Below, piece after piece: positions 37,053 to 64,000 of a stretch of 64,000 bases of DNA. The DNA comes from Candidatus Multivoradales bacterium (GTDB lineage Bacteria; Acidobacteriota; Thermoanaerobaculia; Multivoradales; J023), in assembly GCA_965248925.1 (NCBI GenBank), contig CBDFLE010000004.1, positions 96,001-160,000 on the forward strand, given 5' to 3'. Under the pieces are notes generated by a model. It saw nothing but the letters and a program-made list of their open reading frames with translations, was not told the origin of the DNA and made no database searches. The position numbers were made by a program, and so were the translations under genes. Each line of letters begins with the position of its first letter. Position 1 is the first letter of the stretch.

Positions 37053-37089
37053 AAACGGTTCATTTTGGTGACCACGAAATGAACCGTTT
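37053..37089. repeat. Perfect 13-bp inverted repeat in the araC / giant-operon intergenic region
   Basis: AAACGGTTCATTT-N11-AAATGAACCGTTT. Confidence 0.85.
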
Positions 37090-37193: not shown

Positions 37194-40100
37194 ATGATTT
37201 TTTCCCGATCTTGTTCCCTTTCATTTCTCTCATCGACCGTTGGCTGGCGACGGGCCATCGGTTTTGTAGTCCTGCAGCTAACCCTGGCCCATGGTGCCCT
37301 GGGTCAGCCGTTGGGCAGCGGCGAGTTACAACTCGCCGGCACCCGGCTGAGTGTTGCGCCAGCGGCGCAAACAGTGCCCTTCGACACCCCGACAGTGGTC
37401 GAGACGGCGCTCGATGGCTACGACCTTAGTCTGGGCACCCTGCCGCCGGACTGGCGGGTGGTAGGTGATTTATCGGGACCCGAGATCGGCGGTGTGCTGA
37501 CCCTCGAGACGGTTCCAGGCGAGCCCTTTCGCATTCCCCGCTTGCGCCACGAGGGAGAGTACCGGCTGAGCGCTATTCGCTTGCTCGAGGGCGACCGCTT
37601 GTTGGCCTTTGCCGAACCTCGCGAAGTCACTATTCGCTCCACCCAGATCCTGATTAGCCGGGTGAGTTCACGCGCCTTGACTCTCGACGAGTTGCGCGGT
37701 TTCGGGGTGGTGTTCGACGACGATAGTTTCCAAGCGTTCAACCTCACCTTCGGTTTTGGCGTCGACGGCGCGGTGGTGAATTACGACATCCCGGTGGTGG
37801 TGAATCTCTACGGACCGGGGGAAGTGGCGTTCATTCCCCGTGCGGGTCAGTGGGCAGCCAGCGGCGGCGCGCGGTTCGTGCCACCGCAGTTGGTGCCCTT
37901 CAGCTTTGCCCTCGAGCAGCAGGCGGAGCCCGAACCGCCGGCAGGTGGCTGTCTGGTGTTTGATTGCCGCGTCGGTGAGCCGGCGCCGCCGATGGTCGGG
38001 GTGATTCTCTTTCCCACCGACGTGCGCTTGCTCAATCAATTCTTCACCGTCGTGCTGATGGTGCAGAACGGGGCTCCCGAGGCCGACTTATTGCGCGTTC
38101 GTGACCTGAGCGCGAGGATCGTCTTGCCCGCGGGCCTGCGCCAGGCCGAAACCCAGCCGCCGACTCCCCTCGGGGTGCCGGTGCCAGTACGGGTGCCAGG
38201 TCCCGATGGTGAGTTGGGGACCGCTGATGACATCACTTTCATGGTCGCGCAAGCAACCGGCGAAGCTGAGTTCCTGGTCGAAGGCTTGCGCGAGGGCTCG
38301 CACGTTGTCGAATTCCAGCTCGAGGGTCTGCTCGAAGGCTTGCCGGGCGGCCTGCGGCGGATCACCGGCAGCGCGCGGGGTGCGGTGGTGGTGCGTGATC
38401 CCAGCCTCGGAGTGACCATCTCCCACCCCGAGGTGGTGCGCGACGGCGAGCCCTATCCGCTGCGCCTGACGGTTGCCAACACCGGCAACGTGCCGGTCAA
38501 TCTACTCAGCTTGGAGCTGCCGCTCAGCGGCCTCTCCGGTGTCGAGCTGGTCAGTAGCAATGTCGAGACCATCGAGGAGCTGTCGCCGGGAGACTCGGCG
38601 ACGGTCGAGTTTCAACTGATCGCCCGGCGTACCGGCAAAGTGGTGTCGAGCGCGCTACGCTCAGGCGGCGCGATCAATCCACGTTTTGACCTCACCGTCG
38701 GCGTGGGCGAGGATGGCATCCCCCTGTCCCCCGACACGCTGATCATGCCGGCCAGCACCGAGCAGTTGCCGGCCGAGCTGGTGCGCTCGGCTCTCGGCTT
38801 GCTCGGTCTGGGCTATTCACTCGCCACCGCGCCGCCGCAAGCGCTCGCTGGCAGCTTGCCGCAGGTGAGCCGGCAGTCGATCACCAGCCGGGTCTACAGC
38901 TTGACCCAGGCCGGCCGGCATGTCGCTTTGGGCGAAGAGCTATTCGACGCCTTGGCGGTGCTGGCAGCGGAATGGAATGGCGCCCGCGATCAGGATTGGG
39001 ATTGGGACTTGCTGCGGCGAAGTACCGCCCGTGGAGGCGAGACGGGAGTTCAGATCGGCGCGGCTTTGGCCGCCGAAGCGACGCTGAGTTCGCCGCTCGG
39101 GATGTTTGAACGATTTGCTGCCGCAACCCACTTCTTGCCCCCACAGCATGCCGTCCTGGGTATAGGTGCTGGCGTTTCGGTGCAGATCGAGAGCCCACTC
39201 AGCGGTCATGTCAGCAGTCGTCTTGGAGGTGATCCGCAACGCCGGCGGGAGGTGCCGTTCGCCGACATCTTTGGCCTTGGAGGGGCCGAGATGGCCTTGC
39301 TCAGCGCGCCCGAGGACACTGGCTACCGGGTGCGACTGACTGCATCGGCATCGACCTTGGCCGACCTTCACTTGCTGACCCGTGGTATTGATCGGGTGTT
39401 GCGAGTAAGGCGTTGGACTGGGTTCAATTTGCCGCCCGCCAGTGTTGCCTGGGCCACCTTGGGTGGTGCCGGTGATGCTCTGCTGCGCATCGACGACGAT
39501 GGTGATGGCGAGGCCGATCGGCTACTGCCGGCGACCGACTCCAGTTTGGCGCCGCGCCCTTTCGAGGTGGTGGCGGCGGTGCAGAACGAGGTAGTCGATC
39601 CGTCGGGGCATGTGGTCGATGTGCTGCTTTCGGCCGACCTCGATGCCCGTTCCTTGCTGCCTCGCGATGCGGCCCGCTTCGAGTTATCGGGCAAAGTCTC
39701 GAATGGCGGCGCCCTGCCGGGCGAGCAGGACTACGGTTCTTGGCTGGCCAGTGACCAGGTGATCGAGAACCCCTTCGCCGGTCTGCACAACCCGCGCATC
39801 GTGCGGGTGGTGTTCGACAATCCGCTCAGTCCCCTGGTTGACAACCCGCTGACCGTGCGCGATCTGCTGAGCGCGGTCGGCCAACCTCTCGCCGAGCAGC
39901 AGCGGTTGGTCGAGACCCGGGTGACCACCGCCGGAATCGTGGTGGAGGGTACGGTGATTGGCCCCGATGGCCAGCCGGTCCCCTTTGCCGAGGTCAGCCT
40001 CTACGAGCGCGACACACCAAGTTTCGCGCTCAATGCCTGCCAACGCCATCGCACCGCCGCGGTGCGGGCCGACGCGGCGGGCCAGTTTCGCTTCGACTAC

Positions 40101-43100: not shown

Positions 43101-46100
43101 GGTCTCAAGGGCAGTGCCTGGGTGCGCCTTGATCTCGACGGCGCGGTGGTTCCGCTAATCGTCCAGTTGGAGCCCAGCGGTAGCATCGTGGGTCGGGTGT
43201 TGGCGGTAGATGGAGCCACCCCGGTGGCGGGGGCAATTATAGCCTTGGGCCAGGATCTCGCCGCTTATACCGCTGCCGATGGCACTTTCCTACTCGATGC
43301 GCTAAGCCTGGATTCCTACGATTTGACAGTCCAGGATAGCGAAGGTAGCGGCCGCGCCCGGCGCGAGGTGCAGTTGAACGCCGACGGCCAGCAGGTCGAT
43401 CTTGGCGATCTGGTGCTCGACGCCGCCGACCCGCAGGTGCTGTCGGTGACGCCAGCGAGCGGCGCTCGTGATGTGCCGCGGACCGTCGTTCTGGAAGTCG
43501 AGTTCAGCGAGCCGATGGACGGTCCGCGCAGCCAGTCGGCTTTCGTGCTGACCACCCTGAGTGGTGGCAACCGAGCCTTGACTGTCGCCTGGTCGGCAGA
43601 CGGCCAGCGAGCCCTGCTAACCCCTTACTCACAACTCACCAACGACACCGGGTTCCACTTCCAGGTGCGAAACACCGCGGTCGACCTCGCCGGCCGGACG
43701 ATTCCTAACGCCATTCAGACCACGTTCTTTTCGCAAGACGATGTGCTACCGGTGGTGATCGAGCTGCTTCCCGCCGACGGTGCGGTGGAAGTGCCGGTCG
43801 ACAGCCAGATTTCGATCGAATTCTCCGAACCGGTGGTACTCGAATCTCTGTCCGGCAGTGCCCTGCAGCTAGTCGACGAAACCACCGGCGGCGGCGTGAC
43901 GACCACCTTCTTGCTACGCGAAGGCGAGCGCCAGGTGCTGTTGCAACCCACGGTCGATCTTCTGAGCGACCATCGCTATCGCTTGACCGTCCAGGGGGTG
44001 ATGGATAACTCCGGCAACACCTTGCAAGGGACCGTGTCGACCACCTTCTGGACTCCGGACACCACGCCACCGGCGATTACTTGGCTGGAGCCGGCGGCCA
44101 ACGCGGCGGTGAGTTCGGGTGATGCCCTCGAAGTGCGGGCCGAGATCACCGATCTGCGTGGGGTGGCGAGTGTCACTTTCACCCTCGGCGAGTGGAGTTC
44201 CAGCTTTACGGCTCCGCCCTATGAGTGGTCACTGTTCGTGCCGCCAGTGTTTGGCGCCGAGGTGCTGGAAATCGTTGCTGAAGCTACCGATGTGTTCGGC
44301 AATATCACCAGCTCGTTGCGCACTCTCCAGGTCACGCCGCAGATCAACGGCCAGGCGCCGCAGCTCGATTTGGCCTGCTTGGTGGAAGGCGATTTCGTTG
44401 CCCCGGGGCTAGAGGTTCCCTTCGCTCTGACGGTGACCGACGATCTGTCGATCGAGAGCTATAGCTTCTTTGTCGATGGCCAGCAGGTCGAGCGGCGGAC
44501 GCCGATCGATCTGCCCGAGGTCAGCGGGACTTTCTTGTGGACCCCGCCGGCCGCTGCGGTGGCGGGAGATCTCTTCCAGCTGCGTTTCACGGCTCGCGAC
44601 TATGCTGGCAATGTCACGGCGGAAGAGTTCAGCGTGCAGGTGCCAGCCGGCCAGATTTTGACCGGTACTCAGATCGTGGATGCGAGTTGGAACGGGGTCG
44701 ATCTGGTATTGGCGGCGGGTGAGATGACCGTCACCGGCACCGTCGAACCGGCCTCCTTGAAGATCTTGCACGGTGCCCAGCTGTCGCATGCCGACAGCTG
44801 CGTCTATTCCAGCTGGCTGGCCACCTTGGGGCCGTGGCCGAGCGGTGATACGCGGGTGCAATGCGGCGCGGTGGTGAACCTCTGCCGCTTGCAGGGTGAA
44901 AACCTGTGGCTGGGACCTGGCGCCCAGGCTGAGCTGCACACCTTGAAGGCTGCTGCCGTGGCCGAGATCAGGCCGCGGGCTGAAGTGAGCGCGGATTGGG
45001 TCGGTAGCGACCAGCTGCGTCAGTACGGCGAGCTGGCTACGGTGCAGGTAATCGTGCCCAATATTTCGCTGCGTCCGGGCTCGGTGACCCGCGCCAAATC
45101 CAGCACTCTCTATCTGGTTGGGCTGACGACTTTCGAGGTCGACGGTGGAGCCCGGATTGATGGCACCGGCGCTGGCTACCGTGGCGATGAAATCAACGGC
45201 GGTCCCGGCACGGTAGCCGGGATGCGGCCCGCTGGCCGCCAGGTCGGTGGCTCGCACGGCGGCTACTCGAGCTACGGTGAACGCCTCGAATTGGGTGAGA
45301 TCTACGGCAGTGTCTACAACCCCTGGCAGGCTGGCGCGGCGGGCGGCTCGGCCCAGGGAACTGGCGATGGCGAGCCTGGCGGAGCCGTGGTGTGGTTGCT
45401 CGCGGATCAGCTTCGGCTCGACGGCGAGCTGCTGGCCAACGGCGCTTCCCATGCGGAATATGGCTATGGCACCGGTGGCGCCGGGGGCAGCATCAACATC
45501 CAGGCCAACCTGCTGGCCGGTTCCGGGCGCATCGAGGCCGCCGGCGGCGAGGGCTATCGCCCTTCTTGTTGGCATCTCGACTTCCTGCAGATCTCAGGCG
45601 GCGGCGGTGGTGGCCGGGTGGCGCTGCATGTTGCCGACCAGAGTGCCTTCGATGCGCTGACCCAGGTGTCGGTGGCTGGAGGGCAGAGGCGTTGCTTAGG
45701 TGTCGTCGAGAGCATCGCCGGACCTGGCTCGCTGTACATCAACGATGCGCAGTCGACCTACGGCACCCTCTACGCCGCCGGTGGCGACCCGGCCTCTGTT
45801 GATCTGCGGAGCGGCCCCAACACGGGGTTGCCGCAGCTGGTCGCGGGCTCGGTCACTGCGACCGAGGTCAGTGGTGCCGATCTCTGGGTCACGGCCGAAC
45901 AGCCCTTGCTCGGACGTTGGTTTGGCGCCTGGATGGTGCTCTTCGATGCCGCCGGCAACGAATTGGGTACCTTCAACGTGTTGAGCATGGATTGGGCCGG
46001 CCGTGGACTGCTGAGTGGCGCGGCGGCGGTTGCCAATCAAGCGGCGAGCTATGCCGGTGAGTACCTATTCGATGCCGTCCATGTGCTGCCGGGAGCGGCT

Positions 46101-49100
46101 TTGGAGGTCCTGCCCAGCCAGTTGGGCCGCCGCTCCTTGGCGGTCGTCGGCGATCTCGAGGTGGCCGCCACGGCTCGTCTCGATGTCAGTGCTCGTGGCT
46201 TTGGCGGCGACCTCGGAGATCCGCGGATGGCGCCTGATTTTGTTGCCGGCTCCGAGCCCGATGCGGGCGGTAGCCACGGCGGTGGCGGGCTGGCGGCCAG
46301 TCAGAGTGGCCCGTCGGGGGAGGTCTTCGACAGCGTTTATTGGCCGAAGTTCTCCGGCGGTGGCGGGGCGATCGACCAGGGAAGCCGCTCCGCCGCCGGC
46401 GGCGCCGTGCTGTGGCTCCAGGCCGGCCGCCTGATCCTCGACGGTACTCTGCGAGCCAATGGTGAAGGCGCGGAGTTTGGCGTCAGGGAGTTCGGCGGCG
46501 GTGCCGGCGGCACGGTGCGGGTGGTGGCCGGTGAGTTGCTCGGCGCGGGCGGTATCGACGTCGTGGGTGGCGGCACCACCTGGTCTGGCCTCGGTGGTGG
46601 CGGCCGGGTGGCGCTCGAACTGGGCGCTGCATCATCCTTCGATCCGCTGAGCCAGATCGATCTCAGCGGCGGCATTCCGGGCAGCTCGCTGAGCCACCCC
46701 GCCGCCGCTCCGGGCACCGCCTACGTCTTCGGCGCGGGCTCGGTATACGGTGATCTCTACGTCTTGGGCGGTGCACGGACAACCCTGCTGGAAGTAACCC
46801 CACCGGCGTTGGGCCGGGGTGAGGTCGCGCTGGTGGAAGCCGCTGGCGCCGATCTGTGGATCGAGCCGCGAACCACCGACCCACTGCCGGCGTTGGGGGT
46901 CGATGGGATGTGGCTGCGGATTGCCGGAGTCGACTACCGGGTGGTCGAGCAGAGCGCCGATCGGCGACGGCTGCGGCTCACCGCTGCCGCCGGACTGGTG
47001 ACCGTCGGCGAGTCCTATGCCGGGATCTACAAATTCGACAACCTGATCCTCCGCGGGGGTGCCACGGTGCGTTTCTACGATGAGGTAGAGATCGGCCAGA
47101 TCGATGCCGAGTCGGGTAGCGAAGTGATATTCGCTGACCTCGAACCGCCAACCTTCGGCGTGGTGACCCCTGCCGAAGGAGCGCTCTACTCTGGCGGCGA
47201 TCCGATCTCGGTCACTGCCGAGGTCAGCGATAACCGGCTACTCACCCGAGTGACGGCGACGTTTGCCGGCTTGTCCTATGCGCTCGACGCGGCGCCCTTT
47301 GCTTGGACCCTCAACGCACCCCCGGTGCAGCAGCAGACCGTCATGACTCTGGAAATAGAGGCGGAAGACGGCGAGGGCAATCTGGCCCTGGTGACCCGTC
47401 ACTTGACTATCGAGCCGACCGCCGACCCTTCGGCACCGCAAGTGTTGCCGGCAGGTTGTCCGGCCGCTGGCGACTGGGTGCTGCCGGGTGCCACCCTGTC
47501 AGTGATCTTCGACGCCACCGACGATCAGCAGATCCTGGCCTACGGCTTCAGTGTCGATGGGGTGCGTCAGGCTTGGGTGGAGAATGTGTACCAAGATCAG
47601 GTACGCGCCGAGCTGAGTTGGACGGTGCCGGCGACGGCAGTGGCCGGCGATAGTTTCGTCGTCACCTTCGAGGCTGAAGACCTGGGAGGTCACCAGCAGA
47701 CCGCCAGTGTCACGGTTTCGGTGCCGGCAGTGCCTTACCTGGCTGGCGACCAAGATCTCGACAGCTCGGCTGGTGGTGCCCTGGTTCTCAGCCAGGGGCT
47801 GTTCACGGCGACTGAGCCGCTGGCGGTCGATTCGCTGCGCTTGCTGGCCGGCGCCCGCTTGTCCGTCGCCGCTGAAGAGACTTTGGACCTGCAGGTGTTG
47901 GGCGCGGTGCGAGTGCAGTGTGACGCAGTTTTCGACCTTGGCGGCCGAGGGTACCAAGGTGGCGCCGCGGCCAACGGGTGGGTGGCCGGTGCTCCTTCCT
48001 GGGTCGAGCGTTCTTGGGGCCATTCGGGAGGCAGTCATGGCGGCAGTGGCGAGGTGGTTGCCTCGACCACGATCACTGAGCTGTTCGACAGTGTTTACGC
48101 TCCGACTTTACCCGGCGGTGGAGCTTCACATGTCAATGGCTACATTCATGGCGGGCACGGCGGTGGAGTGCTTCATCTCGATGCCGGCGAGGTGATTCTC
48201 GATGGCTTGATTTCGGTGGCCGGCGAGGATCGCGATCCGGTCTCCTTCTCCAACCACGGCCGCTCGGGGACCGGCGCTGGGGGCTCGGTGTGGATCCGTT
48301 CGCTAAGTCTGAGCGGTGCGGGGTCGATCGATGCCGCGGGGGGGCACTACCTGAATGCTACCGCCTATTACGGTGGAGTGGGCGGTGGTGGTCGAGTCGC
48401 CTTGGAAGTCGATGATGTCAGCGGTTTTGATCTACAAGCGGTGGATGTGGGGGGTGGTTTGCGCACCGATACCGGTGGGGAGGTGACCTGGGTTGGCGAT
48501 CCTGGAACCTTCTTCTTGCGGGACGCTAGCTCGATCTACGGCGAGTTGCTGGCCTCGCGGACCCTGCCGGGATTCGAGCAACGGCTGGTGCTGCCGACCC
48601 TGGCCGGCGATTTGGTGAGTGCCACCGAGGTCGTGGCTGGCGATCTCTGGATCACCGCGCCACAGCCTTTGCGACCGCGCTGGCTGGGTGCCTGGATGGA
48701 ACTCTTCGATGGGGCGAGCGAGTCGCTAGGAGTATTCCAGGTGGTTGACATCGATGCCGCCCAGCGGGTCAGACTGCAAGGCGCGGCGGCGGCCCAACTG
48801 GCGGCTGCTTTCGAGGGCCGCTACCGCTTCGACGCCATCACCCTGGACGTTGACTTGCGTAGTGCCGAGCCGCTCGAAGTGACGCAGGTCGAGGTGATTG
48901 GCGACGTGGTGCTCGACTCGAGCGAGTTGCGCGGCGCCAGCCTGGCGGTGCGCTCGGGGGCGACGCTCAGGACAATCCAGGGCAAGCCGCTCCAGTTGCA
49001 ACTCAGCGGCAGCTTGATCGTCGAGGCTGGCGCGACCATCGATCTCGATGGCACTGGCTATCTCGGGGGCGTCGCATCACCGGACGGAGCCGTCCCGGCG

Positions 49101-51377: not shown

Positions 51378-51411
51378 CCCTTGTTGGCGACTCATAATGA
51401 AGGAATTCCCC

Positions 51412-54400: not shown

Positions 54401-57400
54401 GTGCCGAGCCTGGTGCTTGGATCGAGGTAGATGGCGGGGCCTCAGTAGGAGCGGGGCAGGTGGCAGACGATGGCCGTTTCGCCATCAGCGTCGTGCTGCT
54501 GCCCGAGGGGCCGAATCACCTGACGGTGATCGCCGTCGACGCCGCGGGCAACCCCTCGCCCGCGACGAGCGCCGATATCGTCCACGATTGCACCGCGCCG
54601 GAAGTGCTGGGTGCCAGCCGGGAGGCGGCGGGATTCCGCATCGCCCTCAGCGAGACGGTCGACCCTCTGAGCTTGAGCGGCTCGGTGCGGGTGTACGACG
54701 GCGGGATGGAAATCGCCGGCACAGAGAGTGCGACTGCCAGCGAGCTGATCTGGACCGCCAGCGGAGCGTTGCCAGCAGTCGCTCTGCTGGTCGAAGTCGA
54801 GGGAGCTTTGGCGGACCTGGCCGGCAACCCGTTGGCTTTCCCCTACCGGCAACTCTTCGATATAGCCCTGGGCGGTAGCTTCTTCTCTGGCACCGCTATC
54901 GACGACGCCTCCGGCCGGCCGCTGGGCGGGGTGCGGGCGGTGGTGACGGCGAGCGATGGGGTGGCCCTGGCCGAGCCCTGGCCGGAGCAGACCAGCGGCG
55001 AGGACGGTCGCCTGGTGATCGCTCTGCCCGCCGGCACTCACGACGTGACCTTTGCCCGGCCGGGCTACACGCCGGTGTTTCGGGTGGTGACGACGGTCGA
55101 CGGCCAAGGCACGGACGTTTTCGACCCTCGCCTGACGCCGGCCGCGGCAGCGGTGTCGATAGATGCATCGGGCGGCTTGGTGGAGGGCTCTTCAGAAGTC
55201 GGCACGGCGCCGCGTCTCACCCTCCCGACCGCCGGCCTGGCGTCGGCTACGGCGGTGCGCCTGACGGCGGTGGGCGGCCAGGGGCTGGCCGCCTTGCTGC
55301 CCTACGGCTGGGCACCGCGGGGTGCCGTCTGGGTGGATCTCTCAGCCGCGAATCTAGCTGCCTCGGCGACCCTCGATCTGCCGGTGACCTCGGCCGACGG
55401 GACGGTGCTGGAGGCGGTAACTCTCGATCTCGCCACCCTGCAATGGCGTTCGCTGGGGGTGGTGACGGTGAGCGGCGGCGAGGTCACGATGACCGTCGAC
55501 GGCGAAGGAGCCTGGGCGGCGGTGGAAGCCGACTCGGGAGCTTTGGCGCCGCCCCCGGCGGTCGCTGGCCAGATGCTGGGCTCCTCGGCCGCGCCGCCGT
55601 CCGGCGGGGTGACTAGCGCCAGCCTGAGCTTCGATCCCGAGGTGGTCTTGCCGACGCAGCGCAGCTGGGTACAGGTGCTCTACGGGCTGGCGGCGGAGGT
55701 GCCGAGCGGGGTGCCGCTGACTTTGTCGATCGAGGAGCGGCTGGAGCTACTCGATGGCAGCGTGCGGCGGATCAGTCCCTACAGCGCCGATCTGGTGCTC
55801 TACCGCGATTCGCTGGGCGATCCGACCTCGAGGTTCCGCCTGCGGCCTTCGGCCGCGGCGCGCAGCCTGCCGGTGCGGCTAGGTGCCGAGCAAGTCAGCG
55901 TGCGGTCCTACGGTGATGAGACGGTGCGCGGCAACGTGCTCGGCCCCGACGGCGGCGTGGTGTCGAGTGCCGAGGGTGATCAGGTGGTGCTGCCGGCAGC
56001 AGCTCTCGAGGAGCCCACGGCGGTGACTCTGAGTCGCCGGACAGTGGCCGATCTGCCGCTGGCTCCACCCGCTGGTGGCACGGTCGACGGCGTCTTGGAG
56101 CTGGACCTTGCCGGCCGCCGGCTGTTGCTGCCGGCTGAGCTGTCGTGGTCGCTGACCCCGGCACCGGCTGCTGGCACGCCGGGTTTGTTGCTAGGGGTGG
56201 TGGAAGTGGAAGGCGAGCCGCGCTATCGGGCGATTGCCGAGCTGGAAGCCACCGCCACTGGCTGGACGACGAAGGTGATCGACACTGCCGACCTGGCCTG
56301 GCCGGGGGTGCTGGAGGGCGGTTTGTACGTTTTCTTGCGCCTCGATGCGGTACCGCGCTTTGTGCGGGGCATGGTGCTTGACCCAGGAGGTGCTCCGGTC
56401 GTGGGCGCGGTGGTCGAGTCGACGACGGTGCCTTGGCTCCAGATCTCAGCCGCCGAGGGTGGCTACGTGCTGCCGATTCTGCTGGATGCCGCCACTCTCA
56501 GCGCGCGGCGCGCGGTCACCGGCAACGCGGTGGCGGTGGCGCTGCCGGCCGGGGTTGCGGCGGAGCGGGTCGATCTCGATCTGCCGCTACAGATCGTGGC
56601 GCCGTGGGTCGAGCAGATCACTCCGTCAGCGGGCACCAGCGGAGTGTTGCTCGGCTTCAATCCAGTGGTGCGTTTCAGCGAGCCGGTGGATCGGGCCTCG
56701 CTCGATGGCGCTATCGAGCTGCGCCAGGGGGGCGTGGCGGTGGCGGTGGCACTCGATCACCAGGGCGCCCTGGTCACCCTGCTACCGCAGGCGACGCTGG
56801 TGCCTGGCAGTGAGTACGAGGTCTGGGTGGGGGCGGCGGTGCGTGACTTGCAGGGCTATGGGCTGAGCGGCTCGGTGAGCGTGCTGTTTAGCACCGAGGT
56901 GGTGGCGACGCCGGCCGGGGTCGATCGCGGGCGGATCTTCCTGGTCGAGCCCGATGCCCAGGGGCTGGCGCGAGTGGAGGGCCTGGCGGGGGCGGCGCCG
57001 GCCGGCACGCTGGTCTTCGTTGAAAATCTGACATCGTTCTCGACCACCGAGTCTGTACAAAGCGCGGGTGACGGTAGCTTCCTGCTGACGATCGGCGCCA
57101 GCCTCGAGGATCAGCTGCTGCTGCATGTGCTGATCGATGGGGGTAACGAGGTAGTGATCCTGCTGACTCCGTTCCTGGGCGCCGACCTGCGCACCGGCCT
57201 GGCGGGGACGGGGGCGGGGGAGTTTACGACCGCCGATGGAATCACCGTGCGTTACGCGGCTGGCACCTTCGCCGGGCCGTCCAGGGTGCAGGTGACGCCG
57301 ATCGCCATGGGCACGCTGGCGGCGGCAGAAGACTTCAGCGAGCTGCTGACCTTCCGGCTGGAGATCGACGGCGCGCAGCCGCTGAAGCCGCTGGAAGTGA

Positions 57401-60400
57401 CGATGGCGGCGCCGGCTGGCACCGCACCAGCTGGCACCGCGGCGGGCAGCCTCTGGCTGCTGCGCCGGCAGCTTGAGATCGCCGATTTACCGTGGATGGT
57501 CCACGCCGAGCTGGCTCTCGATGGAGGTCAGGTGAGTACGATCAATACCGTGGGCGAAGCCCAATCCGCCAACTCCGGCGAAGTGGGTGGCACCAAGTCA
57601 GCGGCCTTCGCCGTGCCGGCCCCTCTGCGGGTGCTGAGCCCGGCAGAAGCCGCCGCGCGGCTGCCGCGCTCGGGGTATCTGAGCGCTCTGCCGCCGTCTG
57701 ACCCAGCGGCTCTGGTCGAGGTCGAGCCGCCCCTGGCCGGCTTGGGACCGGCCAAGGCGACCGTTGCCCCCGTCCTGGCGGACTATCTGGTCGGCGTCTC
57801 CCGCCCCGGCGTCTATCAGGCAGCGCGGGCCGAGGTCGAGCTGGGTTGGATCGCCTTCCCCTTCCGTGGCGCCCAAGACCTAGTGGTGCGCAGCGCCGAG
57901 TTGCCCGAAGTGGTGCTGGCGCTCGATGCCGTCAACCGCTCCTTCCTGCCGCTAGGCGCCGGTGCCTTGCCGGTTGAACTCAGCCCGACGCCACTGAACG
58001 CCGATCCCGCCGCGCCGGGGACGCCGGGGACGCCGGGGTCGAAGGCGCCGCCAGCGGGCGAGCCCAAGGCCGACTCGGTGGAGATCCAGGTGCTCGATTT
58101 CGCCGGTGTCGAGCTTTATCGGGTGGTGGTTGACGCCCCGACCCAGCAGGTGGTGCTGCTGAGCCCCAGCCAGCTACCCAACGCCGGGCCGCCCATGCCG
58201 GTGGGCGGTGGGCCGCTGCGCTTCCATGCATTCGACGTCGCTGAAGGCACCGCTGGGATCGCCGCCGGCATCAGCGCCGAGCTGGAGGGTAACTCGCTCA
58301 CCGTGAGCGGCGAGGCCGGCAGCGCCGGAGCCGGAGTGGCGGTGCGTCTGATCGATCTAGAAAGCTCGAACGTGCTCAGCGCTACGGCTTCTCCAGGCGG
58401 TAGCTTCAGCGTCGTCGCCAGTCCGTCGCAGCTCGGCGATCAGCTGGTGCTGGCGATCTCGGCCAAGCTCACTCCGGGCCAGCCGCTGCGCCTCGACTTC
58501 TCAGAAGCCTTGCAAGAAGAGGCGCCAGGAATCCGGGTCGAGCACGACGGGATGGCCCTGCCCATCACCAAAGAGCCTCTGGGCAGCTGGGCACAGCTGC
58601 TGATCCACGGCGGCTGGCAGGCAGGCAAGACCTACAACTTGCGCCTGGACTCCACCATGGCCGACGCCGCCGGCTTGCCTTGGGATACTGACCTGACTCT
58701 GCCTTTCGAAGTCGCCGAATCGAGCGCCGGCACTAGCTTCGCGCTCGACGCGGCGCACGACATCGCGCGCCTCGGCTCGTTGCTCTTCGTGGCCGCCGGC
58801 GCCGATGGCCTGGCGGTGCTCGACGCCAGCGACCCGCGCCAGCTGAAGAACTGGCTGGCGGCTGAGACCTACGTCGATCTGGTCTCGGAGCCAGGTCTAC
58901 CGGTGCGCGGGGTGGCGACCGACAGCCATGGCCGGGTGGTGGCAGTAGGGGGTGGCGTCGCCCGCCGGGGGGTGCTGCTGATCCTCGATCCGCAAGAGCT
59001 GCCCCAGGGTGCCGCGACGGTGCCCGCGGCGGCGATTCTCGGCCGCACCCTCCTCACCGAGCCCCAGCTGGCTGGCTCGGGTGCCCCGCCGCTGCTCATC
59101 GGGCGGCCGCTGGCGGTCGAGATCTTCAACCGCGATGAGAGCACGAGCTGGACGGTGGGGGAGGTGGTGCCGCCGGGCCTCACCCTGGCTCCGCCCAGCC
59201 CACCGAGCGGCACGGCGGCTGTCTCGCTCACCGTCAGTGGCATGGCGACGGCGGAGCGTCCGGTGACTCTGCGCAACCTCACCACCGGCGAGCGCGACAG
59301 CGCTCGCGTCGGCAGTCCTGGTGGCGGCGGTGCTGGCAGTTTCTCCCTGAGTCTCAGCGTGCGGCGCGGCGACCGCCTGGAGCTACTGCGCAACGAGCTG
59401 TCCTTGGCCTACGTGGCGGGTTACGACGCCGGGGTGGTGACGGTGGATCTGAATGCCGTCGAAGCTGCCTCTGAGGAGGTCGACGATCCTTGGGATGCTT
59501 TCGATCTGCTGCGCTACAACACTCATTATGTTGTGCCGAGCGAGGTGCTGTGCTCGACGTTTGAGTACGACCAGCGCTTTGACGTGATTGACGCTCGGGT
59601 GCTGCCGGCGGCGGCCGAAGGCGAACCTTGGAGCGTTCTGGCTCTGGTCGAGAACTACGGCTTGCTGTCGCTGGGTGCCTCCGTGGCTGCGCCGCTGGAC
59701 AAGCTGGCCTACCGCGACGCTCTTTGCGGCGAGGTCGATGACAACCGCAAGATGGGCGGTCTCGATGTGCTGCCCGGCTACCGCTTCGACCGCAACGGCG
59801 ACGGTGTGCTTGACGACGAGGAGCCCGAGCGTGACTTCGCTCTTCTCACCAATACCGTCGGTGGCGGGGGTCTTGGCTGGCTGCTGATCGTCGATGTCAC
59901 CGAACGCAATGAGCTGCGCCTGGTGGGCCGCATCGAGCTGCCCGGCCCGGCGACGCGGGTGACTGCTGACCCGGTCGGCCGCCGCGCCCTGGTATCGGGC
60001 CACGGTGGCGGGGTCTACATCGTCGACCTCGACCGCTGGCCGGCGCAGAGTGGCGGGGGCGGAACCCCTCAGATCTGGTCGAGCGATCGGGTGGTCGAGC
60101 GCCTGAGCTTTGGCGAGGACGTGCGCGCCCCCACCCTGGTGGCTCCGGAACTGGGCCTAGCCTTCGCCGGCGGCGTTGCCCGTGGTGTGACCCCCCTCAG
60201 CACTGGCCTGCCGCGCCTGTCGCTGGTGTCCAGCGGCGAGCAGGGACTGCGCCGGGTCTCGCGGCTGGCGCCATTTGGCGCGCCTACCGCCCCGGAGAGC
60301 GCCGAGGAGGGAGCGGAAGAAATACCCGGAGTGATCCGAGTGCAGGCGCAGCTTCCCGGTGGCCTGGCCGATGCCGAGGGCAAGATCCGTGTCGACCTCA

Positions 60401-63400
60401 GCGGCATTGGCCCCGCCGGGCTGCCGGTGCGCGGCCTCGGCGAGGGGCTGATGGACGAGCCCGTGGCCGAGCTGAGAGACGATAAGGCGTTGGTGCTGCA
60501 ACGGCAGTCGGACAACCCCCTGTCAGAGGGCTACAACGTCTTCCTCTCCGATCCGGTGGTGCTGCTGGCTGATGTGCGTGCCTCGGCGCATTTCGAGCGC
60601 TCGGAGGCCGAGAAGGAGGCCTGCCGCCGCTGTGACCTGGTGGACGAGGGGGTCTACGCCGCGGCCGATCTACCCCCCAACGAGCTGCATGTCGAGCTGC
60701 TATCGGGCCATCAAGTGCGGGCTAGCTACAGCGAAGCCGTCGCCTCGAGCCTCAGCGGTCTTTACAACGCCGATCTGCTAGCGGGCTACGCCGTCATCGC
60801 CGACAGTGTGCCCTGGGATCTCAGTCCCTCGCCGCACCAGGAGCCGGTACTCAATGCCGCCACTAGCGCGATGGCGGCGCCGGGCACCCTCTTGCACTCC
60901 GGCGAAATGACCCGCCAGGCGCACGACCTCAGCCTCCAAGGCCGGGGATTGGACCTCGCCTTGGTGCGTACCTACCGCAGCCAAACAATCAGCAATGGTC
61001 CCCTCGGCCCAGGCTGGGATCATGGCTACCGCCTGCGCTTGCGGCTCTTGCCCAATGGCGATGTCGACTTCTTCGATGGCACTGGCCGCCGCGAGACCTT
61101 CACCCTGGAAGACGACCGCGAGCTGAAGCCGCCCGTCGGCCGCTTCGTCCAGCTCAAGAAGTACGCCGAGGGTTACACCCTGATCGGCAGCGGCTATCAG
61201 CGCTGGCGTTTCGACCGCTGGGGTCGCCTGGTGTCGATGATCGACTCGGTGCGCACCAGCGAGGAGACCGGCAACGAGATCACCTTCCACTACGACGCCC
61301 ACTCGCGCCTGGCGCGAATCCACGACGATCTCGGCCGCAACACCTTCCTGCACTACGACGACGAAGGCCGCCTGGAGAAGATCGTCGACTTCAGTGATCG
61401 CGACTTCCTCTACCACTACGACGCCCAGGGAAGATTGACCAGTTTCGAGACTCCAGTCGTCGACCTCGGCAGCGGCAGCAGCCAGCGTCTATCGACCACC
61501 TACGCCTACCACGCCGCCGGCACCGGCCTGGCTGGCCAGCTCAGCCAACGCGATGATCTGAAAAGCGAGACTGACGCCAAGAGCCAGACCTGGCTCACCC
61601 TGCGGTATCAGGATTCCGACGGCAACGGCCGCCCCGATGCGCTCAAAGAACAAGATTGGGGAGCGGAGACAGTGCATTTGGCCTTCGATTTCGACGGCCA
61701 GCAGACCACCCTCACCGATCGCCGAGGCAAAGTCTGGACCTACCATCTCAACGCTGCTGGGCAGATGCTCAGCGAGCGCGACCCGGCGTCTCATCAGTCG
61801 AACTGGTCCTACGAGCCAAGTGGTGCGCTGGCACAGGCCACCGAGGCGGGGGGAATCACCACCGATCTGACCTACGGCTCGGACTCTCCGCGCCAGCGGG
61901 GCAATGTGTCGAGCGTGACGACGACGCCTTCCCCTGGCTACCCCAACCCTGTCGCGCCGGTGGTGGTGCAGGTGCTAGAGAGGGTTAAGAAAACCAATCG
62001 GGTGGCCAGTTGGAACGATAAGCACGGTGCGCAGCACCTGATCATCACCTATCCCAACGAGCTGCCCAAGGTGCGTCATGACGCCTATGGCACACCGCTC
62101 AACGCCACCTCGTCGATGACGTACGACTTTTTCGGTCGGATCCTGGAGCAGACTGCCCCCAACCAGAGCAAAACCACCTTTACCTACTCCCTTGAGGACG
62201 GTTACTTGACTCAGGTGGTCGCCGATGCCCAGAACCTGGCTCTGAGCACCGACTTTCTGGAGCGCGACGCCCGTGGCAATCCGCTGCGCTGGCGCGACCC
62301 GCGCGGGGTGATCCACGAAGCTGAGTACAACGCCCTCGGCTGGCTGCTGCGCCAGCGGCAGGCGATCTCAGGCGGGGCTGCCCCGATCGGCCTGGTGAGT
62401 GAATTCGACTACGACGCCAACGGCCAGGTCACGGCGACCCGGCGCTCCCACAGTGGCGGCGGGATGACCGCCGTTCGCTTCACCTACGGGGTTCTCGGCG
62501 AGCTGCTGCGCAGCGAGCGCGAGGTCGAGCCCGGCGGGGCGGCGATCCTCGAGACCGTAGCGTATGACCCTCACCTCAACCCGACTCGCATCGTCGATGG
62601 TGTCGGTGGGGTCACCCTGCTGGAGTACGACGCCCGCAACCTACCGCTGCGCAAGACTAGCGGGGCGGGTACGGCGGCGGAGATTGCAGAGGAGTACTCC
62701 TATGACGCCGATGGCCGGCTGGTGGTCTACACCGATGCTCGCCAACAAGTTTGGCGTACTGAGTACGACGGCTTGGGACGCCCCGCGGCACAGATCAATC
62801 CGCTGGGAGAGCGCACCGAGACCGAGTACACCCCAGGTGACCTGCCAATCCACCAGCGCCGCTTGAGTGCCTCGGGCGTCGTGAAGAGCGAGCAGCAATG
62901 GCAGTGGGACGTGCGTGCTCGGCAGACCCGCGGCATGGCTCATCTGTGGGCCTATGGCGAGGGTGACGGTGACGGCGAAGCTCATCAGCAGCTGACGACC
63001 GAGTTTACTTACGATGCCATCTCGAATCTGCTCACCGTCGAGGGTCCTGGCATCTCGTTGGAGCATCGCTACGACTCGGCGGGGCGGCGGACCTTGTCGC
63101 AGGACCAGGCCGGCAACATCGTCGAGCTGGACCTTGACCCGCTAGGTCTGGTCACCAGCCAACGCCACCTTGAGCAGCTCGCCGAGGGGGGCACCGCGAC
63201 CGTCGAGAACACCTTCACCCACGACGCTTTGGGCCGTCCGCTGAGTGAGAGTCTGCCCCAGGGTGGCAGCCGCAGCTGGCAATATGACGTCCGTGGCAAC
63301 CTGACCCGTTTTGCCGACGCCGACGGCCGCGTCTGGAGCTGGCAATACGACGGCCTCGACCGCCGGGTCGCCGAGCAGGCTCCGGGAGGTGTTGACCTCA

Positions 63401-64000
63401 GCCACACCTATGACCAGGCTTCGCGGCCGCTGACCTACACCGACGCTCTCGGTAACCAGACCCGCTGGGTCTACGACGTTCTGGGTCGGCGCACCGACTG
63501 GCTGCTCAACGGCGTCGGAGTAGAGATCTACGGCCACGACGAGAGCGGCAACCCAACCTCCATCCTGCGCGCCGACGGCAGCCGCATCGACCAGAGTTTC
63601 GATGCCGCCGGCCGGCTGATCAGCCGCCAGATCAACCTCCCTGACGGCACCCTGGGCGAGGCCGAGAGCTACGCCCATGACGCCCTGGGGCGGATCACTC
63701 AGCAAACCGCGGGCGGCATCTCCACCCAGCACAGCTTCGACTCGTTGTCGCGGCTGACCGCCGAGACCACCGCTAATCTCACCGTCGGTTACCAGCACGA
63801 TGCCGCCGGCAACCTGATTCAGATCAGCTACCCCTCGGGTCGCCGGGTCGACATCGTGCCCGACGGGCTCAATCGCCCCTCCACGGTCGCCTGGGCGGCG
63901 CCCGGGCCGCCCGAAGTCAAGGTGCGCTACGGCTATCGCGGCGGCAATCTGATGTCCTCCCGCAGCCTGGCCCAGCTCACCGGGGTGAAGACTTTTGATG
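51412..64000 (+). CDS. Giant (>=4196 aa, 3' end outside window) secreted Rhs/YD-repeat protein with Ig-like stalk, LVIVD-like repeats and DUF6531-like domain
   Basis: AAGGA RBS, then ATG 51412 MSKQLLLRFLLILQVFLGVLLLSASAAQA. The same frame gives ten D..(P/A)P Ig repeats, LFVAAGADGLAVLDASDP (~58780), GEMTRQAHDLSLQGRGLDLALVRTYRSQ..GPLGPGWDHGY (~60900) and many YD..GR repeats to the end. It is absent from the ORF track, consistent with no in-window stop. Confidence 0.92.
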   Translation, partial: MSKQLLLRFLLILQVFLGVLLLSASAAQAAPVFVSVTPVDGTLSSAASVTLTVEVQGAISLQVDGQAVTTVDPSGTVWTAGPYSLSEGERVLVLIAEDASGVQAQQLHRVVRDSLPPVLSLSQPAAGAIVASSPLIVVGTAVDAHLAAVRVGGQVAALSGASFSHSLVLVEGEQTFTVEASDSLGQSGQQSVTVTLDSQPPTVALLEGAQPLAADALFNRSVVLSFSVTDATATTVEALLDGASFTSGTTVSAAGSHVLSVTATDAAGQPTSVSRSFEIDLTAPTFLSFTPSDGTLLADSQVTLSGVVEGAAALSVEGQAASLVGQSWTAGALQLIEGEREISIVATDLAGNSASFTLHLERDARAPQLIGLVPSVDTVLATSPVAVSGTASDAHLLEVRVGGELASLTGSQFSHPAVALVEGENLLPIVATDQVGHQATAELRLVLDTQAPTLSLLVAGVPLQGGAVFAGPVTPEISASDATEVVTSATLDGATYLPGTVIDGDGLHQLSVSASDAAGHQATVLVSFSLDLAAPVFADLAPVAGSVDSAAQVTLTGRAPGAVSVSVDGQAATLAGDGFSAGPFNLSEGERVFLLAATDSGGNVTQLTHHLTRDSTAPQLTLGQPAAGALLGSTSVDVSGTASDPRLDQVTVNGVLAELSGGAFLARQVPLTEGDNVLTVVAADTVGNEVQTTRSVTVDTTPPTVVITDPASGTITPEAGLTLSGSAADPHLDRVEVAGVGASLVGEQWSLAVDLQEGSNTFTVEAFDPLGHSTSASVTVTRDSSAPEIHIESPAEGLYSPAANLTVSGTVVAEPDLTVTVGGVAATIAGSSWSAAAVPLVEGENRLIARVTDALGNQGTHTRVVWRDNQAPEFLSSIPAAGALELPAGSSFRLRFSEPLAAPSGGAYSLSTLAGQALASSAEIDGDDLVITPQAALPSATELRLVLGAGLVDRAGNALAAAHTLAFTVVDGGAPAAPQLDAYASYLCAPATTLAGGAEPGAWIEVDGGASVGAGQVADDGRFAISVVLLPEGPNHLTVIAVDAAGNPSPATSADIVHDCTAPEVLGASREAAGFRIALSETVDPLSLSGSVRVYDGGMEIAGTESATASELIWTASGALPAVALLVEVEGALADLAGNPLAFPYRQLFDIALGGSFFSGTAIDDASGRPLGGVRAVVTASDGVALAEPWPEQTSGEDGRLVIALPAGTHDVTFARPGYTPVFRVVTTVDGQGTDVFDPRLTPAAAAVSIDASGGLVEGSSEVGTAPRLTLPTAGLASATAVRLTAVGGQGLAALLPYGWAPRGAVWVDLSAANLAASATLDLPVTSADGTVLEAVTLDLATLQWRSLGVVTVSGGEVTMTVDGEGAWAAVEADSGALAPPPAVAGQMLGSSAAPPSGGVTSASLSFDPEVVLPTQRSWVQVLYGLAAEVPSGVPLTLSIEERLELLDGSVRRISPYSADLVLYRDSLGDPTSRFRLRPSAAARSLPVRLGAEQVSVRSYGDETVRGNVLGPDGGVVSSAEGDQVVLPAAALEEPTAVTLSRRTVADLPLAPPAGGTVDGVLELDLAGRRLLLPAELSWSLTPAPAAGTPGLLLGVVEVEGEPRYRAIAELEATATGWTTKVIDTADLAWPGVLEGGLYVFLRLDAVPRFVRGMVLDPGGAPVVGAVVESTTVPWLQISAAEGGYVLPILLDAATLSARRAVTGNAVAVALPAGVAAERVDLDLPLQIVAPWVEQITPSAGTSGVLLGFNPVVRFSEPVDRASLDGAIELRQGGVAVAVALDHQGALVTLLPQATLVPGSEYEVWVGAAVRDLQGYGLSGSVSVLFSTEVVATPAGVDRGRIFLVEPDAQGLARVEGLAGAAPAGTLVFVENLTSFSTTESVQSAGDGSFLLTIGASLEDQLLLHVLIDGGNEVVILLTPFLGADLRTGLAGTGAGEFTTADGITVRYAAGTFAGPSRVQVTPIAMGTLAAAEDFSELLTFRLEIDGAQPLKPLEVTMAAPAGTAPAGTAAGSLWLLRRQLEIADLPWMVHAELALDGGQVSTINTVGEAQSANSGEVGGTKSAAFAVPAPLRVLSPAEAAARLPRSGYLSALPPSDPAALVEVEPPLAGLGPAKATVAPVLADYLVGVSRPGVYQAARAEVELGWIAFPFRGAQDLVVRSAELPEVVLALDAVNRSFLPLGAGALPVELSPTPLNADPAAPGTPGTPGSKAPPAGEPKADSVEIQVLDFAGVELYRVVVDAPTQQVVLLSPSQLPNAGPPMPVGGGPLRFHAFDVAEGTAGIAAGISAELEGNSLTVSGEAGSAGAGVAVRLIDLESSNVLSATASPGGSFSVVASPSQLGDQLVLAISAKLTPGQPLRLDFSEALQEEAPGIRVEHDGMALPITKEPLGSWAQLLIHGGWQAGKTYNLRLDSTMADAAGLPWDTDLTLPFEVAESSAGTSFALDAAHDIARLGSLLFVAAGADGLAVLDASDPRQLKNWLAAETYVDLVSEPGLPVRGVATDSHGRVVAVGGGVARRGVLLILDPQELPQGAATVPAAAILGRTLLTEPQLAGSGAPPLLIGRPLAVEIFNRDESTSWTVGEVVPPGLTLAPPSPPSGTAAVSLTVSGMATAERPVTLRNLTTGERDSARVGSPGGGGAGSFSLSLSVRRGDRLELLRNELSLAYVAGYDAGVVTVDLNAVEAASEEVDDPWDAFDLLRYNTHYVVPSEVLCSTFEYDQRFDVIDARVLPAAAEGEPWSVLALVENYGLLSLGASVAAPLDKLAYRDALCGEVDDNRKMGGLDVLPGYRFDRNGDGVLDDEEPERDFALLTNTVGGGGLGWLLIVDVTERNELRLVGRIELPGPATRVTADPVGRRALVSGHGGGVYIVDLDRWPAQSGGGGTPQIWSSDRVVERLSFGEDVRAPTLVAPELGLAFAGGVARGVTPLSTGLPRLSLVSSGEQGLRRVSRLAPFGAPTAPESAEEGAEEIPGVIRVQAQLPGGLADAEGKIRVDLSGIGPAGLPVRGLGEGLMDEPVAELRDDKALVLQRQSDNPLSEGYNVFLSDPVVLLADVRASAHFERSEAEKEACRRCDLVDEGVYAAADLPPNELHVELLSGHQVRASYSEAVASSLSGLYNADLLAGYAVIADSVPWDLSPSPHQEPVLNAATSAMAAPGTLLHSGEMTRQAHDLSLQGRGLDLALVRTYRSQTISNGPLGPGWDHGYRLRLRLLPNGDVDFFDGTGRRETFTLEDDRELKPPVGRFVQLKKYAEGYTLIGSGYQRWRFDRWGRLVSMIDSVRTSEETGNEITFHYDAHSRLARIHDDLGRNTFLHYDDEGRLEKIVDFSDRDFLYHYDAQGRLTSFETPVVDLGSGSSQRLSTTYAYHAAGTGLAGQLSQRDDLKSETDAKSQTWLTLRYQDSDGNGRPDALKEQDWGAETVHLAFDFDGQQTTLTDRRGKVWTYHLNAAGQMLSERDPASHQSNWSYEPSGALAQATEAGGITTDLTYGSDSPRQRGNVSSVTTTPSPGYPNPVAPVVVQVLERVKKTNRVASWNDKHGAQHLIITYPNELPKVRHDAYGTPLNATSSMTYDFFGRILEQTAPNQSKTTFTYSLEDGYLTQVVADAQNLALSTDFLERDARGNPLRWRDPRGVIHEAEYNALGWLLRQRQAISGGAAPIGLVSEFDYDANGQVTATRRSHSGGGMTAVRFTYGVLGELLRSEREVEPGGAAILETVAYDPHLNPTRIVDGVGGVTLLEYDARNLPLRKTSGAGTAAEIAEEYSYDADGRLVVYTDARQQVWRTEYDGLGRPAAQINPLGERTETEYTPGDLPIHQRRLSASGVVKSEQQWQWDVRARQTRGMAHLWAYGEGDGDGEAHQQLTTEFTYDAISNLLTVEGPGISLEHRYDSAGRRTLSQDQAGNIVELDLDPLGLVTSQRHLEQLAEGGTATVENTFTHDALGRPLSESLPQGGSRSWQYDVRGNLTRFADADGRVWSWQYDGLDRRVAEQAPGGVDLSHTYDQASRPLTYTDALGNQTRWVYDVLGRRTDWLLNGVGVEIYGHDESGNPTSILRADGSRIDQSFDAAGRLISRQINLPDGTLGEAESYAHDALGRITQQTAGGISTQHSFDSLSRLTAETTANLTVGYQHDAAGNLIQISYPSGRRVDIVPDGLNRPSTVAWAAPGPPEVKVRYGYRGGNLMSSRSLAQLTGVKTFD
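51500..54030 (+). repeat. Ten tandem ~83-aa Ig-like repeats with ~750-bp super-period
   Basis: DxxxP linkers near 51750, 52000, 52250, 52500, 52755, 53000, 53250, 53505, 53760 and 54015. GAGGGGGAGCGGG (EGER) recurs near 51670, 52420 and 53173. Confidence 0.8.

Follow-up and report, generated by a model that had tools for sequence, protein, structure and literature searches.

Organization of the operon

The window analyzed here is a 64,000-nt stretch (C4:96001-160000; contig CBDFLE010000004.1, assembly GCA_965248925.1) of the genome of a Candidatus Multivoradales bacterium of the phylum Acidobacteriota, and its last part is occupied by an operon of two giant genes, A and B, which are the subject of this study. 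The assembly, labeled G000, comprises 7.98 Mb and is 96.9% complete; C4, C5, and C6 are its contigs, other G numbers denote genomes of relatives, and coordinates without a contig are those of the window. The features of the operon and its immediate continuation are as follows.

37194..51377, + strand: gene A, 4,727 aa; leader, conserved head, transthyretin-like (CarboxypepD_reg) stalk, Big_5/Big_7, and five Gly-rich modules (open reading frame [ORF], Pfam)
37194..44393, + strand: N-terminal module of A, residues 1-2400, conserved and of fixed length (in-register matches)
37305..39953, + strand: A head, residues 38-920; immunoglobulin (Ig)-like sandwiches, long beta-hairpins, and a helical bundle (AlphaFold2 [AF2] model)
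44991..50993 (approximate bounds), + strand: variable distal part of A with five GGSHGG modules, adhesin-like (homologue comparison)
51412..64000, on to C4:162561, + strand: gene B, 5,049 aa; signal peptide, Ig stalk, scaffold module, propeller, plug-like domain, and Rhs/YD shell (ORF, Pfam, TIGR03696)
54619..57291, + strand: conserved scaffold module of B, ~890 aa; CarboxypepD_reg, two ZU5-like units, CarboxypepD_reg, and Big_5 (12/12 homologues)
58714..60834, + strand: beta-propeller (best matches seven-bladed), then a ~200-aa plug-like domain (AF2 model)
60835..64000, + strand: DUF6531 and YD-repeat shell, running past the window (Pfam, Foldseek, fold comparison)
C4:161548-162561, + strand: end of B beyond the window, with the bipartite DPxG motif of the Rhs-associated core and a low-GC tip of 297 aa without an assigned activity
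C4:162546-163028, + strand: putative immunity gene, 160 aa, overlapping the stop of B (position)

An earlier note on this DNA, made from the sequence alone, had described two co-oriented ORFs 34 bp apart, and this arrangement was recovered: B can be opened from ATG 51397 or from ATG 51412, the latter lying behind an AAGGAA ribosome site and giving the 34-bp gap to A. Within the window B encodes at least 4,196 aa, and its stop lies 2.56 kb past the window. The note had assigned signal-peptide-like N termini to both proteins; that of B is strongly hydrophobic and ends in AQA (19-residue Kyte-Doolittle maximum of 2.49), whereas that of A is weaker by hydropathy (1.29), and the conserved domain in A homologues begins after ~25-55 leader residues. 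The five Gly-rich modules noted near the end of A were located as GGSHGG modules at residues 2685, 3025, 3612, 3979, and 4347, and the DUF6531 and YD repeats of B were confirmed by Pfam.

Short-read contig depth changes in steps along the operon, from 1x over the 5' part of A to ~2x from position 46584 and to a still higher value at the start of B. These steps fit the assembled copies described below, so that the copy structure of the region agrees with the short-read contigs, which come from one sample, the same as that of the assembly, and hence are not independent evidence.

Protein B and its toxin array

By sequence criteria, B is an Rhs polymorphic toxin, with toxicity predicted, and a member of the Sec-exported Rhs polymorphic toxins. 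Pfam searches of B retrieved Glucodextran_B, Big_5, Big_13, DUF6531, and RHS_repeat (E 5e-59), with no PAAR or VgrG domain among the matches, and the Rhs-associated core was recognized by TIGR03696 (E 5e-21). In the AF2 model of the pre-shell region (37 sequences, pLDDT 89, pTM 0.86), the propeller (1-500) is followed by the plug-like domain and then by the start of the shell; in B as a whole, ~3,100 aa of stalk, scaffold, and propeller precede the shell. The propeller resembles YncE (Z 31.7, root mean square deviation [rmsd] 2.5, 296 residues aligned), and the shell resembles the Rhs core 8qja (Z 29.4, rmsd 2.5, 314 aligned) as well as 7pq5 (Foldseek E 1e-15). The scaffold module is present in all 12 B homologues compared, including B-like proteins without the Rhs shell; its only ESM Atlas matches were under 0.9, and the ZU5 label is weak, with a Pfam match in 2 of the 12 members (best E 1e-4).

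Reading on beyond the window, as the earlier note had proposed, uncovered the Rhs core with its DPxG motif, the 297-aa tip, and the immunity-like gene. This first tip has no Pfam or PDB match and no homologue match either, the latter being weak evidence. Further on, B proved to head a ~215-kb tandem array (C4:133-285 kb and C5:1-64 kb) that contains six B copies, each with a signal peptide of its own, five of them intact and the sixth frameshifted, along with one B cut by the start of contig C5, several 5'-truncated cassettes, which would serve as a reservoir of tips, and a chimeric gene, A' (C5:16044-21020). In A', which is followed by an intact B, a B-type signal peptide continues in frame into the C-terminal 1,597 aa of A (99.9% identity); the junction corresponds to window position 46584, the same place where the read depth doubles.

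The B copies of the array are 91-99% identical in the stalk, scaffold, and propeller and carry two shell types only ~36% identical to each other, and 11 distinct tips of 211-304 aa were found on 12 Rhs ends. The bipartite DPxG motif was printed for 10 of these ends and is visible in the other two, and the GC content of the tips (0.48-0.57) is below that of the cores (0.64-0.66; 10 ends measured). Amidase_2 was matched by two tips and a TseH-like family by one, the remaining tips being without a meaningful Pfam match. An ORF of 84-243 aa is coupled at -15 to +20 bp after 11 of the 12 ends; by their position, these ORFs are putative, immunity-like genes. The three behind the Amidase_2 and TseH tips have hydrophobic leaders, which fits the need for immunity against wall-targeting toxins. 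Thus, the earlier concern that the Rhs C terminus might be invariant and without an immunity gene was not substantiated, as the C termini are polymorphic and immunity-like genes lie next to them.

Recurring in the spacers of the array are genes for an rve-type transposase and an HTH-XRE/TPR protein as well as a Pterin_4a-like ORF. The transposase gene (304 aa; C4:163414-164328 and repeats) follows most immunity genes, in the reverse orientation, and appears to be specific to Rhs loci, with 12 of its 14 matches in the array and the other two beside transglutaminase-Rhs genes, a situation reminiscent of the H-repeats of Escherichia coli. The HTH-XRE and TPR gene (C4:168197-169534 and eight array copies; 25 family matches genome-wide) precedes most B copies and cassettes. 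The array also has an insertion at C4:253257-259877, a module that encodes a primase-helicase and a tyrosine integrase and includes small toxin-antitoxin-like ORFs, and a similar primase module is found upstream of A in G568.

Protein A and its conserved head

By homology searches, the head of A belongs to no described family: residues 38-920 have no Pfam match above the cut-off, no PDB sequence match, and no usable ESM Atlas match, and the Pfam families recognized in A are limited to CarboxypepD_reg, Big_5, and Big_7. The head family itself is large, comprising 88 giants with 28-57% identity and 1,903 clusters (50% identity) at E<=1e-3. Among the 150 best matches, the domain is N-terminal and, where the start is intact, lies behind a short leader. 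The source names of the closest homologues of A are mostly Thermoanaerobaculia/Acidobacteriota, and a scan of genome contigs with the head returned one locus, in an Acidobacteriota metagenome-assembled genome. Homologues range from 2,700 to 8,700 aa.

The AF2 model of the head (72 sequences, pLDDT 81, pTM 0.69, with the long hairpins at lower confidence) shows neither a barrel or pore nor a membrane anchor, and its structural matches are single Ig domains only, the best with a VIA Z of 12.4 (rmsd 1.9, 92 residues aligned). We considered whether the head could be a pore or beta-barrel translocator and rejected this assignment, given that the model consists of Ig sandwiches and a helical bundle. 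Foldseek matches to alpha-2-macroglobulin and complement were likewise discarded (TM-score 0.09-0.14, rmsd >20 A), as they reflect strings of Ig domains.

Across 156 A-family proteins longer than 3500 aa, the first ~2,400 aa are in register, with the median start equal to the query position, and the distal part is out of register or replaced. The distal parts of homologues carry zero to six or more Gly-rich modules or other adhesin-type families; that of A has a weak match to the AgmC N-terminal model (45 bits vs. a cut-off of 275). A lipobox-like motif occurs in just 2 of 161 A homologues, and a C-terminal hydrophobic anchor in none of them.

Pairing of A and B across genomes

A and B are passed on together, by way of the fixed 2,400-aa module of A and the 900-aa module of B. 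In the order (150 genomes), A was found in 51 genomes and the B module in 49: both in 46, A only in 5, B only in 3, and neither in 96, with 290-480 contigs in the five A-only assemblies. A was detected in 55 of 200 genomes of the class, including the unpublished G175 and G179. In the phylum (300 genomes), 36 genomes carry A and 29 a true B module, 27 of the latter together with A; there were 32 B-module matches, of which those in G332, G454, and G560 were not counted, as they cover only a generic transthyretin-Big_5 stretch. The doubt expressed in the earlier note as to whether homologues of the two genes co-occur can therefore be settled: they co-occur and adjoin. Among loci that share a contig, B is located downstream of A, on the same strand and within 50 kb, in 27 of 28 cases in the order (rows entered: 66 of 69 for A and 63 of 67 for B; second pieces and short fragments dropped) and in 27 of 29 in the class (55 of 82 B rows entered; dropped rows weak and mostly in short ORFs), with one of the class pairs resting on the unpublished G179. 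G337 is uninformative for adjacency, its contig ending inside A.

Direct reading of 23 loci placed A and B as neighbors in 21, with gaps of a few to ~500 bp, with one small gene between them, or, in G022, with A in pieces across an assembly gap. Fifteen of the 21 adjacent pairs have an Rhs-type B, five have a shell-less B, and one could be assigned to neither type. The shell-less proteins end in domains without an assigned family in G123, G519, and G459, in a phosphodiesterase-family domain in G564, and in a VanY-like wall peptidase in G359, where small secreted ORFs follow and an OmpA-family gene lies between A and B; in G519 the order is reversed, with B preceding A. Because the cargo differs while the scaffold persists, the A-B scaffold is the constant unit. 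The earlier note had placed a caged effector on the second giant; the cage is indeed common, but the B scaffold does not always carry it. The pairwise identities of A heads are correlated with those of B modules (Spearman 0.91, 20 pairs).

Two further observations concern loci of relatives. A secreted protein of 265-295 aa without a Pfam family, possibly a chaperone, is encoded just before A or between A and B in seven loci and was not found in G000; its positions include L041:9093-9980, L030:9068-9931, L034:8641-9474, L053:17491-18354, L161:7163-7957, and L162:7036-7914. Directly upstream of the A-B operon in G087 (C1:1152762-1163040), there are partial duplicates of A and an opposite-strand Rhs-type pair of 1,494 and 644 aa.

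A palindrome shared by Rhs loci

37053..37089, + strand: 37-bp palindrome with 13-bp arms AAACGGTTCATTT/AAATGAACCGTTT and an 11-bp spacer, ~105 nt upstream of A (genome recurrence)

This palindrome occurs in 12 copies in G000 compared with none in each of 10 permuted controls, and 11 of the 12 stand ahead of Rhs-type loci. The copies precede A, four solo B genes, A', five Big_9+RHS cassettes, and one secreted non-Rhs protein, namely a 1,724-aa protein with PcRGLX_1st and Laminin_G_3 matches (C6:3873460-3878706). The arms are fixed and the spacer is variable (10-11 nt), as suits the operator of a dimeric protein; alternatively, an RNA hairpin can form from the element (-18 to -27 kcal/mol). The palindrome is hence a candidate operator or leader hairpin that Rhs toxin loci of G000 share, linking two unrelated Rhs families within one genome, and, by its presence before them, the solo B genes may be expressed and share their regulation with A. 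It has no Rfam match. A phylum-wide role was not supported: allowing for <=3 mismatches per arm, the element was matched in none of the loci of relatives examined. Inverted repeats were found upstream of 8 of 27 A loci, G000 included, where 1.8 would be expected; their sequences are unrelated, and they may be terminators.

The Big_9+RHS cassettes represent a third Rhs family of ~1,700-aa proteins with a signal peptide and polymorphic tips, each preceded by a 144-aa secreted Big_9 protein (C5:689093-715851, C5:1194532-1199941, and C6:3617457-3641967); five copies carry the palindrome of A. The HTH-XRE and TPR protein of the array is a candidate binder of the palindrome.

Proposed mechanism and export route

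Taken together, A and B probably constitute a two-giant, surface-displayed polymorphic toxin platform of Acidobacteriota, in which physical cooperation of the two proteins is suggested by gene linkage and conservation. With moderate confidence, we propose that Sec takes A and B across the inner membrane, that folding follows in the periplasm, and that a type II (GspD) secretin lets them out of the cell, and it seems reasonably likely that the conserved module of B docks on the conserved head and fixed-length stalk of A. A would act as an adaptor and adhesin arm, holding B at a neighboring cell, or carrying it there, by means of the variable distal domains, and on contact the B shell would cleave itself at DPxG, a reaction established for Rhs cores, and free the tip. 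The one intact A of G000 would act in trans for five or more intact B variants. The toxin-immunity anatomy, the pairing, and independence of T6SS are shown by the data; binding, the export route, anchoring, target entry, and toxicity are all steps that we infer. A bolder version, offered tentatively and with somewhat less than an even chance, holds that the A head and 2,400-aa stalk are the missing delivery or anchoring partner by which caged and uncaged effectors on B are mounted, aimed, and triggered, with a dedicated type II secretin, one A for interchangeable B warheads, and a shared palindromic operator.

The earlier note had argued for export by a route other than the type VI secretion system (T6SS) or contact-dependent inhibition (CDI). 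Both this and the polymorphic-toxin part of its proposal are supported, and the combination of Sec with a type II secretin, which it did not name, has now gained some positive evidence. A gene for a GspD-like secretin and an upstream lipoprotein gene are co-oriented ahead of A in G554, G400, G389, G454, G335, and G337, with 36-38 bp between secretin and A in G400 and G554 and one gene between them in G335. The G554 and G400 secretins are 34-35% identical to the G000 secretin at C6:2792024, compared with 20-23% to the other two G000 secretins, and C6:2792024 lies in an operon like that of a type II secretion system (T2SS; C6:2.785-2.796 Mb), with GspE/F-like and pseudopilin-like ORFs read by eye. 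A Sec leader together with a T2SS in the genome, as expected for a T2SS substrate, is also found in G000. The T2SS link to A-B export is suggestive.

Several observations weigh against this account. Of 17 informative upstream stretches, 4 showed the secretin linkage, as did 2 of 8 loci, and these fall in three families, all outside this class and, being kin, not independent; secretins are present in all 80 genomes tested, so that their presence does not discriminate. Proteins of 5,000 aa would be exceptional T2SS substrates, and, with neither pore nor membrane anchor in the head model and with the scarcity of lipoboxes and C-terminal anchors in the family, surface retention is unexplained. As to the pairing, A and B are 66 kb apart in G080 and on different contigs in G007, where housekeeping genes follow A; most B copies of the G000 array have no adjacent A; and the congruence of the A and B trees is equally expected from simple linkage.

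Alternative explanations

The most serious alternative, which is compatible with the rest of the proposal and which we consider distinctly less probable than secretin export, retains the two-component function with another route across the outer membrane, such as an unrecognized barrel or chaperone pathway, vesicles, or lysis, possibly aided by the 265-295-aa accessory protein. The confinement of the secretin linkage to three families speaks for it, as does the accessory protein adjoining A in seven loci, and the source names of distant A homologues include a record from Caldilineaceae, a group not known to have a typical outer membrane. The accessory protein was not found in G000, however, where no TpsB gene is adjacent and the sole ShlB-family match genome-wide is weak and ~16 kb past the array; nor was PorP, of the type IX secretion system, matched in G000, although the control was likewise silent.

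Rather unlikely, and slightly more so than the preceding alternative, is the possibility that the two proteins are coregulated yet independent, A being a giant adhesin and B a Sec-exported Rhs toxin, both of the ordinary kind, which share an operon as both are needed at cell contact. The separation in G080 and G007 would be natural in that case, the solo B copies have their own leader palindrome, and A consists mostly of common Ig-like folds. Nevertheless, the pairing is near one-to-one across the phylum and outlasts both order reversal and cargo exchange, and the first 2,400 aa of A are fixed in length with the distal end free, a constraint that a free adhesin would not need.

It is improbable that A and B serve mainly as a scaffold for adhesion or a matrix, forming a fibril of two chains with the Rhs toxin as an optional passenger in some lineages. 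Such a scaffold would account for the five adjacent pairs without an Rhs shell, among them that with the phosphodiesterase-family end, for the OmpA-family protein between A and B in G359, and for stalks rich in PKD, Calx-beta, and other adhesin domains, but 15 of the 21 adjacent pairs are of the Rhs type, even the shell-less B of G359 ends in a VanY-like wall peptidase beside small secreted ORFs, and toxin-immunity diversification dominates the G000 array.

Delivery of B by a standard T6SS, Tc, or extracellular contractile injection system (eCIS) locus, with A incidental, is very improbable: TssC is matched in 20 of 80 A-bearing genomes, and two VgrG-family matches occur in G000 in short genes of unlinked eCIS/PVC-like clusters (C5:2062626-2078138 and C5:1879243-1885312, at 2.07 and 1.88 Mb), but B has a Sec-type leader and neither PAAR nor VgrG domain, the remaining 60 genomes have no TssC match, none was obtained in G000 with a positive control, and no T6SS follows the operon, an outcome that the earlier note had allowed for.

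Neighboring genes and other giant pairs

35841..36803, - strand: AraC-type regulator gene (HTH_18 E 8e-14), divergent from the operon

The remainder of the window (1546-35315) encodes housekeeping functions, including glycosyltransferases, leucine biosynthesis, an SNF2 helicase, a MacB permease, a sulfatase-TPR protein, a TonB-receptor-like protein, a sugar kinase, YdjC, and a solute symporter; neither the FtsX/MacB permease (15562-18021) nor the TonB-receptor-like barrel (26064-29261) adjoins the operon. Pfam scans of 27 of the other ORFs of the window detected no VgrG, PAAR, TpsB, or Tc family, in line with what had been noted from the sequence.

G000 contains a second, unrelated combination of a giant and a giant Rhs protein, in which the gene for a 5,979-aa CARDB/FlgD_ig/fn3 protein overlaps a 3,552-aa transglutaminase-DUF6531-RHS gene (C5:2300306-2356514; further transglutaminase-Rhs loci at C5:1234922-1258164 and C6:5202499-5213130), the transglutaminase-Rhs genes amounting to six copies with differing tips. 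This unrelated arrangement suggests that giant pairing arose more than once. An Rhs-less secreted giant pair, of 2,601 aa (Big_7, Glucodextran_B, PKD) and 3,809 aa (CarboxypepD_reg, TSP3_bac), is encoded at C5:1940812-1961851; both the A head and the B module are absent from it.

Relation to known systems

In its general architecture, B agrees with the Sec/'T2SS'-exported Rhs toxins, described as having a signal peptide, Ig or beta-propeller domains, RHS repeats, a variable C-terminal toxin, an immunity gene, and cassette arrays (Zhang et al. 2012, PMC3482391), all of which it shares; ZU5 domains on the N-terminal side of RHS proteins have been described there as well. The table of that paper gives no signature neighbor gene for this class, whereas here a partner of 2,700-8,700 aa, its conserved head of no described family, is almost always adjacent, and, unlike the toxins described in it, the B scaffold can bear non-Rhs cargo.

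B is also similar, in features and in logic, to the teneurin-like proteins (TLPs), which combine a Sec leader, a variable Ig stalk, a transthyretin-like domain, a propeller, a plug, a YD shell, a bipartite DPxG, a polymorphic tip, and an immunity gene with no obvious delivery machinery (PMC13018210; PMC5851990). The order differs, being fibronectin-plug, six-bladed NHL propeller, and shell in TLPs and propeller (matching seven-bladed ones), plug-like domain, and a DUF6531-type shell nearer to that of T6SS Rhs proteins in B; the tips of 211-304 aa in G000 compare with ~15 kDa in TLPs, and the passages on TLPs drawn on here mention no partner giant. Assignment of B to the TLPs was rejected on the domain order, the alignment to TLP 9ifo (TM-score 0.17, rmsd 29), and profile matches to TLPs in the YD repeats alone. 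TLPs have a transthyretin-like and then a TIP domain upstream of the plug; B has transthyretin-like and ZU5-like units, and its module profile has no match to TLP chains in the PDB. A teneurin-type shell was rejected as well, with TEN_YD-shell at 15.7 bits against a cut-off of 50 over the first 4,201 aa.

The closest shell fold to B is that of the T6SS Rhs effectors (7pq5, 8qja, 7q97), which have the same autoproteolytic core; B differs from them in lacking PAAR and VgrG, in its Sec leader, and in the ~3,100 aa ahead of the shell, and a T6SS is usually not found. In CDI (CdiA/CdiB) and WapA, a long stalk presents a polymorphic toxin at a distance, with tip-immunity cassettes. Here, in contrast, Pfam scans show no filamentous-hemagglutinin repeats or two-partner secretion domain, no TpsB is adjacent, and there are two giant exoproteins rather than an exoprotein and a transporter. 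Tc (ABC) toxins pair a propeller-bearing caged toxin (TcB-TcC) with a second large protein (TcA), whereas the model of the A head does not have the form of a TcA-like channel and both proteins of the present pair have Sec-type leaders; A and B contain no SpvB/TcdB Pfam families, the genome not having been searched for TcA. A precedent for giant adhesin or enzyme genes near T2SS-like loci is provided by the giant genes of Omnitrophota preceded by gspD/E/F homologues (bioRxiv 10.1101/2023.11.21.568195), which are single and encode far longer membrane proteins, with no Rhs toxin-immunity array mentioned in the passages drawn on here.

Neither the A family nor the A-B pairing was found described in the full-text literature searched, which leaves most subscription journals outside and in which the supplements of PMC3482391 and PMC13018210 list architectures that could include members. 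There is a real chance that the A-B pair represents a new class of delivery apparatus. The 2026 TLP paper (PMC13018210) presents it as an open question how Rhs/YD shells without T6SS or Tc machinery reach and enter their target, and A, a widespread specific partner tied to such toxins, with a head family of 1,903 clusters, is a tangible candidate for the component that would deliver or anchor them, which may help to explain how caged toxins reach rivals without an injection needle. The array, in addition, offers a reservoir of toxin and immunity families without assigned function. If correct, the proposal would equip a major phylum that is poorly cultured with a weapon system acting on contact, and it would offer a test of T2SS export of 500-kDa proteins.

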